Assembly (NCBI RefSeq): GCF_017348835.2
Contig: NZ_CP071375.1
From: Escherichia coli
GTDB taxonomy: Bacteria; Pseudomonadota; Gammaproteobacteria; Enterobacterales; Enterobacteriaceae
Length of the DNA: 64,000 nt
Direction: 5' to 3' (one strand)
In this document: positions 50,704 to 58,281 of the stretch, piece by piece
Layout: every line of letters begins with the position of its first letter
Numbering within the stretch: the stretch's first letter is position 1
The notes under the pieces: model-generated
The model's database searches: none
What the model was told of the DNA's origin: nothing
Seen by the model: the letters and a program-made list of their open reading frames with translations, nothing else
Made by a program: the position numbers and the translations under genes

Positions 50704-51066
50704 TTAACGACCTGCTGCGCGGAGTTTTCCGTCAGGTTCACCGGCAAGAGTCAGTAATTGTCCCTGGTCTTCCTGCAGAATAGTCAGGCGACCACCGCGA
50801 TTGACATACATCGGCGTTTCGGTGGTGTCTTCTTCGGAAATTTTCCCGCGGTTAGTCGGGCGAATATATGAGAGTTTGTGTTTGATTTTCACACGGTTCT
50901 CATCAAATGGTTCGATTTCCAGGTTGAGTGAGACCTTACCTTTGGTTTTCGTGTTCATCACACCGGAAGCGACTTCACTGAGAACTGCGCCGATTTTGGT
51001 TTCAAATACGCCGCCGTCCAGCTCCCCGATAAATGCCTGCACATCAGTACTGCGTTCGCTAGCCAT
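50704..51066 (-). CDS. YfdP-like prophage protein (120 aa)
   Basis: Start placed at ATG 51066 (MASERSTDVQAFIGELDGG) behind a GAGGAG SD. The upstream extension in the ORF track lies in the GC-rich noncoding block. Confidence 0.6.
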   Translation of the reverse strand: MASERSTDVQAFIGELDGGVFETKIGAVLSEVASGVMNTKTKGKVSLNLEIEPFDENRVKIKHKLSYIRPTNRGKISEEDTTETPMYVNRGGRLTILQEDQGQLLTLAGEPDGKLRAAGR

Positions 51067-51099
51067 TTTGCTGCTCCTCATCATATCGACCCTGCAAGG

Positions 51100-51500
51100 C
51101 CGATTAGTTTCTCCACAAAACAGAGAAGAACACCTGTGGTGGCCGCCGCCCGGATGGATTGGGTTATGAGCCCGTCGTCCGGTGATGCTCTTCTCTGTTT
51201 TGTAAAAAGGACGGTACCAGCCGGAAGCAAGGGTACAAGCTGGTACCGCCAGGACTACACACAGCATAAAGTTGTGGTGCCGGGTGCCCTCCCGGTGCCT
51301 GGCGAAGGTTGCACACCAGGCGGGTGGGTATCCACAGAAGGTCGACTGTCAGCCTCAACCTTAACCCGCGTGCGCTGAGCCGCATTCACCACAACGCTAA
51401 GGATTCTCTCTGGTTGAAAATACTTAGCTGTTATGTGCCTGCTTTTAGCCACATCAGGCGAGGTGGACCTGGTTATTCCCCAACAACAAGGATTCGGTTA
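51100..51500 (+). ncRNA. candidate large structured RNA / structured leader (unclassified)
   Basis: About 60% GC in sampled 60-nt blocks and no credible ORF. Perfect helices: 51115-51129/51189-51203 (15 bp), 51212-51221/51239-51248 (10 bp), 51271-51279/51387-51395 (9 bp), 51305-51311/51356-51362 (7 bp), 51396-51401/51423-51428 (6 bp). Helix 51276-51284/51291-51299 has two G-U pairs valid only in the + sense. Strand and boundaries are tentative. Confidence 0.3.
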
Positions 51501-51536
51501 ATCTGGATATCCCCAACAACAATAAGAGTATTCAAT

Positions 51537-52052
51537 GTGATCGCTGAATTAACGGCAGCAATGACGGCTATTCGTGAAACAGCCCAGATTGCAAAACTAA
51601 TGAACGAGGCAAAAACTCAAGCTGAAGTAAATGCGGCTATTGGTGAGCTGAACTCAAAGCTTGCGTCTATTCAGCGCGAATGCGTGTCTCTCGTTGAACT
51701 GGTGGGCTCTTATCAAGAAATAAATGCTTCTCTCAAAGCTAAAATTGCAGAATTCGAAAACTTTGAGGCTCAGACGGAAGGCTATATCCTTAACCAACTT
51801 GAGTCGGGTACTTTTGTATACTCGAAGGAGGTAATCGTGAACGGTGGCAGCATAACCATGCATCTTTGCCCAAAATGTTTTGGACAAAAGATAGTATCGA
51901 TACTTCAACCATTCCCGGTTAGCGAAGATGAGCTTTTTCATAAAAGCAGGTGCCTCCACTGTGAAAATAAGTTTCTGATGAATAAAAATCCGGATTACGT
52001 ATCGCCTCCATCCATTGAGGAGTTGTCCAGAAAACTTAACGGCAATCTGTAG
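51537..52052 (+). CDS. hypothetical coiled-coil + zinc-ribbon protein (171 aa), convergent moron between early-left operon and cI
   Basis: GTG 51537 lies 8 nt after an AAGAG SD. The N-terminal ~75 aa are heptad-like (AQIAKLMNEAKTQAEVNAAIGELNSKLASIQRE...LKAKIAEFENFE). The C-terminus carries CPKC-x24-CLHC. It has its own terminator at 52092-52115. The opposite-strand ORF has antisense-like composition. Confidence 0.6.
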   Translation: MIAELTAAMTAIRETAQIAKLMNEAKTQAEVNAAIGELNSKLASIQRECVSLVELVGSYQEINASLKAKIAEFENFEAQTEGYILNQLESGTFVYSKEVIVNGGSITMHLCPKCFGQKIVSILQPFPVSEDELFHKSRCLHCENKFLMNKNPDYVSPPSIEELSRKLNGNL

Positions 52053-52077
52053 ATTACTACTGTTGTGGATATCCAGA

Positions 52078-52089
52078 TTGTTAAAGAGC
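52078..52089 (-). promoter_or_regulatory. rrn-type boxA (putative nutL) on the leftward early transcript
   Basis: Minus-sense aGCTCTTTAACAA matches the remembered rrn boxA consensus TGCTCTTTAACAA at 12/13. It lies about 200 nt downstream of OL and just after a hairpin. Confidence 0.5.
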
Positions 52090-52091
52090 TA

Positions 52092-52115
52092 AGCGTCCTG
52101 TAGGGCGCTTTTTTG
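52092..52115 (+). terminator. rho-independent terminator of the 171-aa gene
   Basis: agcgtcc-tgta-gggcgct hairpin (one U-G pair in the + sense) followed by T6. Confidence 0.7.
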
Positions 52116-52280
52116 TTGCTAACGAATCATCCTGGACTTCATATGCCCCAGGCGGCTACTTCGTGGGCGTCCTGCCTGTTCGTTTTTGACATTTACTGAC
52201 TGCTTACGACACATGCACCGTGTTGCAACCAGATTTTGTTGTAATCCTGTAGTTGGTCTGGAACAAAAGATAAAATTAAA

Positions 52281-52317
52281 TTGCGAGATATGCAAGCGAT
52301 ATTTGCGAGGTATGCAA
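52281..52317. promoter_or_regulatory. OL: two 15-bp repressor operators (pL region)
   Basis: TTGCGAGATATGCAA (52281-52295) and TTGCGAGGTATGCAA (52303-52317), with starts 22 bp apart. The same word family occurs in the cI-cro intergenic region. Confidence 0.6.
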
Positions 52318-52330
52318 ATTTATAGGTAGT

Positions 52331-52351
52331 AAAAAGCCACCTTTCGGTGGC
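52331..52351 (-). terminator. rho-independent terminator downstream of cI
   Basis: gccacc-tttc-ggtggc hairpin followed in the minus sense by T5, 20 nt after the cI stop. Confidence 0.7.
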
Positions 52352-52371
52352 CGATGGATGGGATATTGAGG

Positions 52372-53064
52372 TTAATTATGTCTCTTAAGGGTTTGCGACT
52401 GACTGATTAAGACCTTTCCAAAGACCATGAATCGGTGTTCGTTTTCGCTAGTAATTCCCCATTCACGGTAAATCTGGTTATCAGAAATCACCAGCAGTTT
52501 GTCAGGAATCATTTGAAGTCTTTTAACGTATATTTTGTCATCAAAACCAAAGACATATATACCATCACCATCAAACTGATTGATGCTGACATCAACGAAG
52601 ATGAGATCTCCTGGCTCAATGGTTGGACACATACTGTCCCCACGAACGTTGATAACTTTGATGTGATTGGCTGGTCGTCCGCCGAACATTGATACAGCAT
52701 TATCAGTTCTGTATTCGATGGCATGAATCACATCAATGACATCACCGCCCTGGATAAGGCCATTTCCCGCACTGGCACTGATATCCAGCATTTCAATACG
52801 GAACACATCCTTCACCTGCGCAACATCCTCATTATTACTGTTTTTATATACAGTATTACTTTTGTGGGCAGAGGTAAAGAGATCAGCAATATCAACACCT
52901 AAGCTCTTGGCAATATTACTCAGTGTTTGTTCGGTAAATTGTTTTTGCTTACCCGTTTCTAAGCGCGAGATGTTCGCCGCATCTACTCCTATTGCTTCAG
53001 CGAGATCGGCGATTTTCATGTTCTTCGCTTGGCGAAGTTGTCTGACTCGGTTTCCTATGTTCAT
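52372..53064 (-). CDS. CI-like prophage repressor (HTH_XRE + S24 LexA-like peptidase)
   Basis: 230 aa. N-terminal XRE HTH (IGNRVRQLRQAKNMKIADLAEAIGVDAANISRLETGK). C-terminal S24 motifs GDSM (nucleophile Ser) and YVKRL (Lys). Confidence 0.88.
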   Translation of the reverse strand: MNIGNRVRQLRQAKNMKIADLAEAIGVDAANISRLETGKQKQFTEQTLSNIAKSLGVDIADLFTSAHKSNTVYKNSNNEDVAQVKDVFRIEMLDISASAGNGLIQGGDVIDVIHAIEYRTDNAVSMFGGRPANHIKVINVRGDSMCPTIEPGDLIFVDVSINQFDGDGIYVFGFDDKIYVKRLQMIPDKLLVISDNQIYREWGITSENEHRFMVFGKVLISQSQTLKRHN

Positions 53065-53084: not shown

Positions 53085-53147
53085 TTGCGTGATAAGCAAA
53101 TCAACTTGCGCAAAATAATTGCGTGAAATAACATGCATAACGCGCAA
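53085..53147. promoter_or_regulatory. OR: operator cluster between cI and cro (pRM/pR region)
   Basis: TTGCGTGATAAGCAA (53085-53099, +) and TTGCGCGTTATGCAT (53133-53147, -), plus TTGCG half-sites at 53106 and 53119. Same family as OL. Confidence 0.6.
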
Positions 53148-53161
53148 TATTTGGAGGGCAT

Positions 53162-53422
53162 ATGCAATCACCATTACGAAATGTGCGTAAGGCGCATGGT
53201 TTCACTTTGCAGCATGTTGCTGCGGGTGTTCAAGTCAATCCAGCGACGTTGAGTCGTATTGAGAGGCTGGAGCAGATTCCATCTATCGAGCTTGCAGAAC
53301 GTTTAGCCAATTTTTTTAAGGGTGAAGTCAGCGAAATGCAGATTCTTTATCCGGCACGTTTTCAATCTAGCCAAAACCAGAATGGGTTTAAACCACAGGA
53401 ACAGGAGGTGAACCGTGGGTAA
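53162..53422 (+). CDS. Cro/YdaS-like HTH antirepressor-type regulator (86 aa)
   Basis: Divergent from cI with a GGAGGG SD. XRE-type HTH (HGFTLQHVAAGVQVNPATLSRIERLEQIPS). Confidence 0.8.
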   Translation: MQSPLRNVRKAHGFTLQHVAAGVQVNPATLSRIERLEQIPSIELAERLANFFKGEVSEMQILYPARFQSSQNQNGFKPQEQEVNRG

Positions 53423-54301: not shown

Positions 54302-54321
54302 AGGTCGGTCATGAGCACTAA
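54142..54321 (+). CDS. DUF4222-like small protein (59 aa, TTG start), missed by ORF track
   Basis: AAGGAG (54128-54133) lies 8 nt before TTG 54142. Translation: (M)[58 protein letters not shown], which resembles remembered DUF4222 phage proteins. The stop overlaps the next gene's start. Confidence 0.5.
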
Positions 54322-55252
54322 ATTAACCGGCTATGTATGGGATGGTTGCGCTGCGTCAGGCATGAAATTATCCAGCGTGGCAATTATGGCCCGCCTGGCT
54401 GATTTCAGTAATGACGAAGGTGTGTGCTGGCCATCAATTGAAACCATTGCCCGTCAGATTGGCGCGGGGATGAGTACCGTCAGAACGGCTATCGCACGGC
54501 TGGAAGCAGAAGGCTGGTTAACGCGTAAGGCGCGTCGCCAGGGTAACCGCAATGCGTCGAATGTTTATCAGCTTAACGTTGCGAAGCTTCAGGCAGCGGC
54601 ATTTTCTCAACTGTCAGATTCTGACCCGTCAAAATCTGACGCATCAAAATCTGACCCGTCAAAATTTGATGCGTCGAAATCTGGCAAAAAAGCGGGTTTT
54701 CACCCGTCAGAATCTGGCGGGGATCCGTCAGTAAAATCAAAACATGATCCGTCAGATAAAAAAACTTCTCGTCCGGACGCTTCGCAACCGGACACGCAGA
54801 AGGCTGAACAGGAGTTTTTAACTCGCCATCCTGATGCGGTTGTATTCAGCCCTAAAAAGCGCCAGTGGGGAACGCAGGATGATTTGACCTGCGCACAGTG
54901 GCTCTGGAAAAAAATCATCGCCCTGTACGAGCAGGCCGCCGAATGTGACGGCGAGGTGGTTCGTCCCAAAGAACCGAACTGGACAGCCTGGGCAAACGAA
55001 ATTCGCCTGATGTGTGTGCAGGATGGTCGTACTCACAAACAAATCTGCGAGATGTACAGCCGCGTCAGCCGCGATCCGTTCTGGTGCCGTAACGTGCTCA
55101 GCCCGTCGAAGCTGCGGGAAAAATGGGATGAGCTTTCCCTGCGCTTATCGCCGTCCGTCAGCACGTACACCGAAAAACGCGAAGACCCGTACTTCAAAGC
55201 CAGTTACGACAACGTGGACTACAGCCAGATCCCGGCAGGATTCAGGGGGTGA
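54311..55252 (+). CDS. replication initiator (lambda O-analogue; N-terminal wHTH, internal iteron-encoded repeat, conserved phage C-terminus)
   Basis: 313 aa. Sits in the O gene position. The coding sequence contains the ori iterons (peptide repeat SDSDPSKSDASKSDPSKFDASKS). Confidence 0.75.
   Translation: MSTKLTGYVWDGCAASGMKLSSVAIMARLADFSNDEGVCWPSIETIARQIGAGMSTVRTAIARLEAEGWLTRKARRQGNRNASNVYQLNVAKLQAAAFSQLSDSDPSKSDASKSDPSKFDASKSGKKAGFHPSESGGDPSVKSKHDPSDKKTSRPDASQPDTQKAEQEFLTRHPDAVVFSPKKRQWGTQDDLTCAQWLWKKIIALYEQAAECDGEVVRPKEPNWTAWANEIRLMCVQDGRTHKQICEMYSRVSRDPFWCRNVLSPSKLREKWDELSLRLSPSVSTYTEKREDPYFKASYDNVDYSQIPAGFRG
54612..54765. repeat. putative phage origin: at least 6 iterons CCGTCA(A/G)AATCTG(A/G) followed by an A-rich tract
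   Basis: gtcagattctgac ccgtcaaaatctgac gcatcaaaatctgac ccgtcaaaatttgat gcgtcgaaatctggc ... ccgtcagaatctggc ... ccgtcagtaaaatc ... ccgtcagataaaaaaac. Confidence 0.65.
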
Positions 55253-57285: not shown

Positions 57286-58281
57286 GTGAACGTGAGAGCG
57301 CTACTGACCCCCGAGATTGCCCCGCGTATGGGGATCGTATTGTTCAGACCCGGTTCAGAGCTGATGCCCCTGTTTATGCAGGGGCGTGTCCTGCTGGAGC
57401 CTGAGCCGGAACGTTATTCATCTTTTGCCAGTGGTGCCGTTCCGGCTGCATCACAACCGCTGGCGGATGATCCTGCCGTTCGGGCCGTGTTCCGCAATGA
57501 GGCAGTGATCCGTCGTGCTGGTGGCGTGGAATGTCTTGAAAGCTGGTTACTTCGTGAAAAAGGCTGCCAGTGGCCTCATTCCGACTGGCACAGCGAGAAC
57601 ATGACCACAATGCGACACGCGCCGGGCGCAATCCGTCTGTGCTGGCACTGCGATAACCAACTGCGCGATCAGTTCACGGAACGGCTGGAATCAATGGCAA
57701 CGGATAACTGTGCCCGCTGGGTGTTGTCTGTTGTGCGTCGGGATCTCGGTTTTGATGACAGTCACGTTGTGACAATGCCGGAACTGTGCTGGTGGCTGAT
57801 TCGTAATGATCTGGCGGATACCTTACCGGAAAGTGCAGCCCGTAAGGCACTGAGATTACCGAAGCCTTTTGTGCCGTCTGTCACCCGGGAAAGTGACCTG
57901 GTGCCTTCGGTTCCTGCCACCAGCATCATCCAGAATAAAGCGAAAAAGGTGCTGGCGCTGAAAGTGGATCCGGAGTCGCCGGACTCTTTTATGTTACGCC
58001 CAAAACGTCGCCGCTGGGTTAATGAAAAGTACACGCGATGGGTTAAGACGCAGCCGTGCGCATGTTGTGGAAAACCTGCTGATGATCCCCACCACCTGAT
58101 AGGCCACGGTCAGGGTGGAATGGGGACAAAAGCGCATGACCTCTTTGTGTTGCCTTTGTGCAGAAAGCATCACGACGAGCTGCATGCGGATACTGTGGCA
58201 TTCGAAGAGAAGTATGGCTCCCAGCTGGAGCTGATATTTCGTTTTATCGATCGTGCGCTGGCGATTGGTGTGCTGGCCTGA
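57286..58281 (+). CDS. DUF968 (YdfU-like) protein with HNH-like C-terminal zinc motif
   Basis: C-terminus [46 protein letters not shown] start; GTG 57292 is an alternative, 5 nt after GAGG. Confidence 0.7.

Follow-up and report, generated by a model that had tools for sequence, protein, structure and literature searches.

A repeat-bounded accessory gene slot in a prophage early operon that resembles the boxA and leader-trailer flank of 23S rRNA

In bacterial ribosomal RNA (rrn) operons, boxB-boxA-boxC sets precede both the 16S and the 23S gene, boxA is necessary and sufficient for the recruitment and assembly of the Nus complex, and the helices between leader and trailer are essential (PMC10250234). 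In the tethering model, boxA anchors the 5' strand of such a helix to the polymerase until the trailer emerges (PMC10250234). Long untranslated CRISPR transcripts are also shielded from Rho by a boxA (PMC7665894). Here, we describe a prophage locus that resembles the rrn arrangement. It lies in a stretch of 64,000 nucleotides (nt) of Escherichia coli DNA from contig NZ_CP071375.1 (assembly GCF_017348835.2), hereafter the window, in the immunity region of an integrated temperate phage of the SfV/e14/CPS-53-like type. At this locus, a small accessory gene (a moron, below also called the cargo) is bracketed by an inverted repeat and is convergent with the early-left operon of the phage, for which we place a putative promoter, pL, to its right. 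One arm of the repeat abuts an rrn-type boxA on the strand of that operon. We refer to the whole exchangeable segment as the frame; its limits, 51467-52120, are given by homology breakpoints and it contains the relic of a tandem arm, the left arm, the cargo, the right arm, the boxA and a hairpin.

The original prediction held that the same 19-nt motif brackets the moron in inverted copies, and this is the case. The left copy, AATCTGGATATCCCCAACA (51500-51518), and the right copy, TGTTGTGGATATCCAGATT (52061-52079), match at 18 of 19 positions. The pair extends to 26 nt with 85% complementarity (51500-51525 and 52054-52079) and is the top inverted repeat of the region. When up to four mismatches are allowed, the 19-mer is found at only these two sites within the 64 kb, and by our own arithmetic an inverted pair that matches at 18/19 would arise by chance within 1.2 kb with a probability of about 1.5e-4. 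The 13-mer core, searched with up to two mismatches, gives five matches against 0.99 expected, a number reached in none of 100 shuffles. The predicted placement is also right: 5 nt separate the end of the left copy from the Shine-Dalgarno sequence of the moron, AAGAG (51524-51528), and the right copy begins at the 9th nt past the stop codon (stop at 52052). On the pL transcript, i.e. the minus strand, the right arm (52054-52079) would form the 5' strand of a helix and the left arm (51500-51525) the 3' strand; on the plus strand, the left arm is part of the cargo 5' leader. The part of the right arm that is common to all cargo types is 52067-52079.

Related words were also said to recur nearby. 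The word (T)CCCCAACAACAA is indeed present twice, at 51477-51489 and 51510-51522. AAGGATTC is present at 51399, but its second copy is at 51488, one base off the predicted 51489. ACAACAAAATCTGG is found in the minus sense at about 52228-52241 and is unremarkable: the 7-mer AATCTGG/CCAGATT occurs 21 times in the window, and an isolated AATCTGG near pL is therefore not significant. In the left part of the frame (51467-51499), the left arm and leader are found a second time, as a decayed tandem repeat (ACCTGGTTATTCCCCAACAACAAGGA...), with TCCCCAACAACAA recurring in direct orientation at a spacing of 33 nt. This relic resembles the left arm of the commonest cargo type, AATCTGGTTATCCCCAACAAC, and in one metagenomic frame (L375) the right arm is the reverse complement of the relic copy.

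Next to the right arm is the boxA, GCUCUUUAACAA on the pL transcript (52078-52089, minus strand). Its DNA form, GCTCTTTAACAA, matches the consensus at 12 of 12 positions and is the sole exact copy in the 64 kb. As had been predicted, the repeat word directly follows boxA on the pL strand; the right copy in fact overlaps the last two bases of boxA. Reading the frame leftward gives AAAAAAGCGCCCUACAGGACGCUU-A-GCUCUUUAACAAUCUGGAUAUCC..., i.e. a hairpin, the exact boxA and the arm, where the final AA of boxA is the first AA of the arm. The hairpin is G+C-rich, was found by the terminator scan at 52091-52110, and can be read on both strands. On the plus strand it is the intrinsic terminator of the cargo mRNA, followed by TTTTTTGTT, and in the minus-strand RNA it lies 1 nt upstream of boxA, which is the position of boxB in rrn operons. 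It is retained across frames, with variants in both loop and stem. At this site the boxA goes together with the frame: all loci that have the frame contain it, and relatives without the frame lack it. The boxA reads in the sense of the early-left genes and is located about 190 nt downstream of two copies of the OL operator, TTGCGAGATATGCAA and TTGCGAGGTATGCAA (a direct repeat at 52281-52317, minus strand, with starts at 52281 and 52303). From the operators and the gene order we infer that pL is a CI-controlled leftward early promoter at about 52260-52320.

The string GCUCUUUAACAAUCUGG is the boxA of the 16S-23S spacer in many Proteobacteria. A search with the 17-mer GCTCTTTAACAATCTGG in one genome per species returns mostly 16S-23S spacers, reading ...GCTCTTTAACAATCTGGAACAAGCTGAAAATTGAAAC..., from Enterobacterales, Aeromonas, Vibrionaceae and Betaproteobacteria. 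The spacer boxA of E. coli rrnH, GCTCTTTAAAAATCTGGAT in the context GCTCTTTAAAAATCTGGATCAAGC, is 1 nt from the frame boxA. Both variants, AACAA and AAAAA, are natural rrn forms, and the rrnH form AAAAA is found in some phage frames. In rrnH, a predicted pairing joins the bases directly 3' of the spacer boxA, AAUCUGGAUCAAGCUGAAAAU, to AUUUUCAGCCUGAUACAGAUU between the 23S and 5S genes. The same holds for 26 of the 27 rrn operons compared across diverse species, where the bases after boxA form a duplex with the 23S trailer that starts at most 6 nt from the same AAUCUGG, and where the partners co-vary, e.g. AUCUGGAUAGGUAGAAG/CUUCUACCUAAUCCAGA and AUCUGGAACAGAUCUC/GAGAUCUGUUCCAGA. At the level of sequence, the succession of hairpin, boxA, 5' strand, untranslated insert and 3' strand is the layout of the 23S rRNA flank, down to the bases at the junction. 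Because the right arm adjoins the hairpin and an exact rrn-type boxA, we favor the pL strand as the functional strand.

The frame and the rrn spacer set with its 23S leader-trailer helix have the same order of hairpin, boxA and 5' strand of a long-range helix, and share an identical boxA GCUCUUUAACAA together with the bases that follow it (UCUGG; UCUGGAU in E. coli). In both, the final bases of boxA are where the helix starts, its partner strand is set apart by a long untranslated insert, and compensatory change is seen. However, the insert of the frame is 0.44-0.9 kb antisense to a protein gene, while in rrn it is 2.9 kb of rRNA, and the helix is 12-26 base pairs (bp) in the frame compared with a composite stalk of about 27 bp or more in rrn. 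The hairpin of the frame is unrelated in sequence to that of rrn and doubles as the terminator of the opposite-strand gene. The frame also sits in a prophage early operon. A boxA is likewise found ahead of CRISPR arrays and other long RNAs that are not translated (Stringer et al. 2020, PMC7665894). As there, the boxA of the frame precedes an untranslated stretch in which Rho would be expected to terminate, and it would be another non-ribosomal use of the Nus complex. The difference is that the frame couples boxA to a flanking long-range helix, and that what remains untranslated is antisense to a gene that can be exchanged.

The frame is kept around unrelated cargos. Parts of 51050-52400 are matched by megablast in 3,125 of 5,426 complete E. 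coli genomes and in 68 phage records, and pairwise comparison of these relatives reveals two nested kinds of breakpoint. In SfV, SfII, mEp460_4F5 and ST64B, homology ends at 51466 and restarts at 52121, with neither the motif nor boxA there. In SfIV, Kati and several E. coli chromosomes, homology reaches ...GGTTAATCTGG and restarts at CCAGATTGTTAAAGAGC..., and a different plus-strand gene is found in between. The right 53 nt of the frame, comprising the edge of the arm, boxA and the hairpin, are present and unannotated in 755 of the 5,426 genomes (~14%, about one in seven).

Two samples of loci were collected. In the first, IMG/VR was scanned with a pattern for the left part of the frame, which gave 120 loci. 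When loci fetched earlier are included, a right end with boxA is found at most 3 kb away in 116 of 126 matched sites; the ten sites without it are eight truncated contigs and two rearranged prophages. The 116 IMG/VR loci contain 74 distinct cassettes of 443-910 nt, and these fall into 13 clusters without mutual nucleotide similarity. All 13 cargo clusters are plus oriented and bounded by the repeat, beginning right after AATCTGG... and finishing right before ...CCAGATT. The second sample was picked solely by the shared right flank and consists of 130 loci with 20 kinds of insert. Here, seven kinds (74 loci) have the frame and boxA, an eighth has a degenerate boxA, and the remaining kinds hold other contents without boxA.

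The unit is also found in a second context, a Rac-like prophage of O157:H7 (L003), with the same cargo, both arms and boxA, again in a leftward early operon. The unit shared with this prophage spans 51429-52089 of the window, i.e. it extends beyond the repeats, and directly before boxA on the leftward strand there is an unrelated hairpin without a T-run. When relatives are aligned, the suggestion that the repeats mark insertion boundaries is borne out in so far as they are the exact limits of cargo exchange. What is missing is the expected empty site with a single copy: no arms separated by 0-30 nt were found in IMG/VR, and no perfect-palindrome junction in the 5,426 complete E. coli genomes. 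The locus nearest to an empty one (L279, from the second sample) has an insert of just 11 nt and lacks the entire frame.

Comparison of the arms between cargo types shows that the outer AATCTGG/CCAGATT is almost constant, and that the inner arms differ by cargo with both arms changing together. There are at least eight compensated arm variants. The forms AATCTGGATGACT, AATCTGTAACCC, ATATACC and, in metagenomes, AATCTTG are each found in both arms; AATCTGGT...CCCCAnCAAC combines a T at position 8 with a 3-nt bulge; and further variants are ATAC, CCT and CCA. The self-palindrome GGATATCC is gone in cargo clusters 0 and 2 and in two further loci (L446 and L359), and the arms there are still complementary. 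Because both arms change together with complementarity kept, and because GGATATCC can be lost, it is the pairing from arm to arm that is selected and not a shared word. The idea of one RNA word recognized on both transcripts is thereby not supported. Of the palindromic center that had been pointed out, 8-10 bp are perfect in the window and in most cargo types, but the self-palindrome is not conserved.

In 46 distinct frames, which are related sequences and from which the structure itself was derived, 79.9% of the cells are paired against 74.3 +/- 0.6 in shuffles and the covariation score is 0.195 against 0.119, with none of 500 shuffles reaching the observed value in either case. If the 3' partner is slid by 1-3 columns, only 31-48% of the cells in these frames are paired. 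The long-range stem, of 18/19 to 25/26 bp, is present in the minimum free energy (MFE) and centroid folds of both strands of the window. On the minus strand, the mean pair probability of the helix is high in all 13 cargo types and at least 0.96 in 11 of them, and on the plus strand it ranges from 0.74 to 0.99 across cargo types.

We suggest that, on the pL transcript, the two copies of the repeat pair with each other as a long-range RNA helix and form, together with a Nus/boxA module, a miniature of the rrn arrangement, a reading to which we assign a probability of roughly 45%. The pL transcript contains, in order, the hairpin, boxA, the 5' arm AAUCUGGAUAUCC..., an untranslated stretch of about 530 nt from the antisense strand of the cargo, and the 3' arm ...GGAUAUCCAGAUU; the cargo RNA is untranslatable on this transcript because it is antisense to the cargo gene. 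Upon prophage induction, RNA polymerase would leave pL and transcribe boxA, on which NusB/NusE and the other Nus factors would assemble, and the complex would become Rho-resistant over the long untranslatable stretch. The boxA would remain tethered to the polymerase and hold the 5' arm beside it close to the RNA exit. Once the 3' arm has come out as well, the helix could close and the antisense cargo RNA would be looped out. The downstream leader and the early-left genes, i.e. an STnc100/PasD-like RNA and yfdP-yfdR, would then be made in the same RNA context with any cargo. In this way the frame would serve as an adaptor, so that one convergent moron could be exchanged for another with no polar effect on the phage. 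The steps that we infer are the binding of Nus factors, the resistance to Rho, the looping-out and any processing by RNase III. More tentatively, it can be speculated that temperate phages have copied the solution used for 23S rRNA, and that the boxA-anchored leader-trailer helix is a universal adaptor that makes the early-left operon indifferent to its cargo.

Several observations weigh against the helix and boxA acting together on the pL transcript. The frame-less relatives of the SfV and SfII types carry short plus-strand open reading frames (ORFs) without a boxA, so boxA is not obligatory for tolerating antisense stretches of 200-250 nt. Antitermination of the rrn type acts mainly on Rho. 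Two hairpins resembling intrinsic terminators, which such antitermination should not be able to overcome, lie downstream on the pL strand (51212-51248 and 51115-51203), and therefore boxA alone cannot explain early-left expression. The antisense cargo RNA does not have the C-over-G skew typical of strong rut sites, and hexamers of pL were absent from the consensus promoter scan. Since the frames are all close relatives whose flanks are identical at 94% of positions or more, plain conservation says little. The core of the helix measures just 12-14 bp in many cargo types, which is too short for a classical RNase III site. Finally, the pairs do not tell the strand, as 79.9% are paired on the minus strand and 74.9% on the plus strand. 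A strand call from G.U versus A.C mismatches was also tried. Cells explained only by wobble pairs number 96 on the minus and 41 on the plus strand, and of the distinct mismatch events, 8 could be G.U pairs on the minus strand and 3 could be so on the plus strand, while 13 are transversions. We rejected this call, since the distinct events match the neutral expectation for an A/C-rich arm.

The same helix could act on the plus strand, where the 5' leader of the cargo mRNA would pair with the stretch between stop codon and terminator, and the loop would shield the ends from RNases or tune translation. The boxA of the opposite strand would in that case be there by chance or as a feature of its own. 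The left arm ends 5 nt short of the Shine-Dalgarno sequence and the right arm lies between the stop codon and the intrinsic terminator, as such a role would need, the stem is in the plus-strand MFE and centroid folds with the pair probabilities given above, and the covariation fits either strand equally. In the commonest cargo, an ORF of 68-73 amino acids (aa) on the minus strand follows the right arm, so that the word acts as a leader on both strands. However, no plus-strand promoter of the cargo was found by consensus scan or by eye, and the 5' end of the mRNA may thus not include the left arm; the pair probability on this strand is also lower in several cargo types. Two facts are left unexplained, namely the two-base overlap of the arm with an exact rrn boxA on the opposite strand, as in rrn spacers, and the Rac-like context, which keeps boxA and hairpin but not the plus-strand terminator. 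We consider a role on the plus strand unlikely, although it and a helix on the pL strand do not exclude each other. We also find it improbable that the arms are a feature of the DNA without a present function in RNA, that is, relics or handles of cargo insertion or exchange, derived from a former palindromic hairpin or used in recombination at short ends. It is true that the cargo boundaries coincide with the arms, that the decayed tandem copy adjoins the left arm as if cassettes had been added serially, and that two rearranged prophages (L028 and L107) break inside an arm. But no empty palindromic site was found in either collection searched, homologous exchange requires direct and not inverted flanks, and the unit that moved to the other prophage is larger than the segment bounded by the repeats. 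Neither a transposase nor an integrase nor a target duplication is present, all cargos keep one orientation, L028 arose by an ordinary deletion at a microhomology, and the compensated arm variants point to selection for pairing that is still going on. The missing transposase, target duplication and empty site, the constant orientation of the cargo, the larger transferred unit and the fact that the outer 7 bp of the repeat belong to the constant frame also leave the terminal repeats of an inserted cassette, suggested in the original prediction, without support if a transposon is meant. The terminal repeats of insertion sequences (IS) and miniature inverted-repeat transposable elements (MITEs) are, like the arms, inverted repeats of 12-26 bp at the ends of a variable segment. 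A transposable element was nevertheless rejected: the flanks GGTT and GTTA are not duplicated, the cargos contain no transposase family, and the plus orientation and the position in a leftward operon are fixed.

Two other readings involve a protein partner. Each copy might be recognized independently, as a palindromic site TGGATATCCA, by a dimer of CI, of the cargo protein or of a host factor that binds DNA or RNA and in this way loops the DNA or regulates both transcripts. The perfect palindromes at the centers of the copies would suit such a site, but in several cargo types the palindrome is destroyed in both arms (GGTTATCC/GGGGACC, GGATGACT, GTAACCC) with the complementarity of the arms kept. 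Further, the word is unrelated to the CI operators, and since the cargo proteins differ, none of them can be the common ligand; we regard this explanation as very unlikely. Hardly more credible is a nutL of the lambda type, in which boxA is followed by a boxB stem that is split by the cargo in its loop and serves an N-like antiterminator. A boxA and then a stem is the layout of nut, and the distance to the OL operators on the leftward transcript fits. As in the lambdoid nutL/nutR system with N, the boxA is shortly downstream of an early leftward promoter, here a putative one, under repressor control, and the expected purpose is processive read-through. However, there is no local boxB hairpin or short loop for an arginine-rich peptide; the halves of the stem are instead 443-910 nt apart, with an insert that is unrelated between loci. 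The hairpin precedes boxA, as in rrn and not as in nut, and the boxA is of the full rrn consensus type, unlike that of lambda, which has the form CGCUCUUA. The rightward operon has no second boxA (none within two mismatches near pR), and there is no N-like ORF between pL and yfdP, the ORFs downstream of the frame being yfdP, yfdQ and yfdR. For the leader around the frame, an antiterminator RNA resembling put of HK022 was also rejected at the level of DNA sequence, as the HK022 immunity region, compared by blastn at a word size of 7, matches in the cI gene alone.

In lambdoid phages, a moron is described as a gene that is inserted between phage genes together with a promoter and a terminator belonging to it (Juhala et al. 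2000, cited in PMC4104026). Such morons and the frame cargo are both autonomous, convergent accessory genes that end in a terminator within a phage operon, with a highly variable cargo at a fixed site; compared with the morons as described in that citation, the conserved inverted-repeat frame and the predicted antitermination signal on the opposite strand are found only with the frame cargo. We found no earlier account of the frame in the literature on boxA, prophages, morons and SfV/e14 antitermination. The nut sites of the mEp021 type (PMC11893012) and the small RNAs of PR' morons (PMC4104026) concern other loci. boxA, leader-trailer helices and morons are each known, and it is their combination around an exchangeable prophage cargo that appears to be new.

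If the repeat and boxA do work together as an rrn-like module, the antitermination and chaperone machinery of Nus and rrn would have a second natural class of clients, in which it promotes the co-transcriptional looping-out of foreign antisense RNA. This would be a natural, non-ribosomal case of long-range helix formation tethered by boxA, a model that is still debated for rRNA. It would also explain how convergent accessory genes can lie inside an essential early operon without polarity, and the repeat-bounded slot would be a dedicated and widely used exchange site for prophage accessory genes. The phage system is small, dispensable and easy to mutate. The slot is precise and addressable by sequence, and in the ~14% of complete E. 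coli genomes that have it there is access to a site with at least 13 cargo types, all encoding uncharacterized small proteins that are candidates for superinfection exclusion or defense. The frame could further serve as a compact transcriptional insulator in synthetic constructs.

The cargo ORF of the window (51537-52052, plus strand) is taken from the ORF list and the RefSeq annotation of the homologue WP_000559928.1. It starts with GTG at 51537, as the ATG at 51535 runs straight into a TGA. The gene is convergent with pL and its product of 171 aa has a coiled coil and a C-terminal CxxC...CxxC motif, without any Pfam or PADLOC family above the cut-off. By eye, the cargo proteins across the slot sort into about four groups: proteins with a coiled coil and a zinc-ribbon-like C-terminus (166-178 aa), ECs1072-like proteins (98-148 aa), a signal-peptide protein with a weak LprI-like match (170 aa), and membrane proteins with two transmembrane (TM) segments that have small proline-rich ORFs alongside (150-172 aa). 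With respect to function, all Pfam and PADLOC matches of the cargos (LprI-like, 2TM effector, coiled coil) are below threshold.

The commonest cargo (cluster 0; L004/L005 2392-2640, SfIV, Kati) is an ECs1072-family gene on the plus strand, encoding 144 aa. The minus-strand ORF of 68-73 aa that accompanies it has a strong Shine-Dalgarno sequence, GAGGAGGUG, and is located about 30 nt past the right arm. Part of the RNA that would be looped out of the pL transcript is translated in this cargo type.

Loci without the frame fill the same slot in other ways. The ST64B-like loci (L007 1775-1935; L288, L256, L317) have an insert of 154-168 nt without an ORF, bracketed by a different long-range inverted repeat, GGTATCTTCGGGCGGGG ... 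CCCCTCCCGAAGACACC, with 14 of 16 positions matching. In these loci, the theme of a variable insert closed by a stem recurs without a boxA. In the frame-less loci of the SfV/SfII type (L001, L002, L010; inserts I1, I3, I6, I14, I18), the inserts open with a local hairpin and a Shine-Dalgarno sequence. An example is TATCTTGGTG...CCAAGAAGGAAAT-ATG, which begins a short plus-strand ORF converging on a minus-strand ORF. These inserts are a different, boxA-less solution at the same slot.

Both rearranged prophages from IMG/VR have their breakpoints at GGATA inside an arm. In L028, a deletion of 6.1 kb joins 52071 to window position 58193 at a GGATA(C) microhomology, and cI through the replication genes are lost. 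In L107, the left arm is fused to a tail-fiber gene. A recombination hot spot at the center of the palindrome was considered and rejected, as L028 is a plain deletion at the microhomology and L107 has no recognizable invertase site.

In the immunity region, the frame and pL are followed to the right by a LexA-like cI gene (52372-53064, minus strand) and by cro (53162-53422, plus strand), both from the ORF list; a cII-like gene and the replication genes come next. The operator word TTGCGAGrTATGCAA has its two copies left of cI, and weaker ones with 2-3 mismatches are found in the cI-cro intergenic region at 53085 and 53133. Leftward of pL the sequence continues with the frame, the STnc100/PasD-like RNA and then yfdP, yfdQ and yfdR. 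The right anchor of the variable slot is a segment of the pL leader (52121-52187, minus strand) that is common to all locus classes. About 60 nt of this leader (52123-52182), located between pL and the frame, are shared at 80-100% by phages from eight or more genera. This leader element is found in phages of Escherichia, Shigella, Salmonella, Citrobacter, Klebsiella, Yersinia, Pantoea, Pectobacterium and Providencia; it has no match in Rfam and its predicted fold is weak (z = -0.9).

The structured RNA downstream of the frame on the pL strand (51201-51425, minus strand) adjoins the frame and is a full-length match to Rfam STnc100, with 36.5 bits and E = 2.7e-5, below the gathering score of 47. 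It terminates in the hairpin 51212-51248, followed by UCCUUUUU. It is 94-98% conserved in all E. coli/Shigella locus classes and 77% in Salmonella phage ST64B. A 2026 preprint ties STnc100 to the prophage small RNA PasD. Just upstream of yfdP is the long hairpin 51115-51203 (minus strand), with 18-nt arms that are 94% complementary and a 53-nt loop, followed by UUUUGUGG; it resembles a second terminator that would act as a barrier to leftward transcription. In the rightward direction, an ORF of 313 aa that resembles a replication initiator (54311-55252) contains four tandem 15-nt repeats, TCTGACCCGTCAAAA, at 54620-54683 (plus strand). A match of these repeats to Rfam mir-5880 is spurious, and they are probably origin iterons, as in lambda O.

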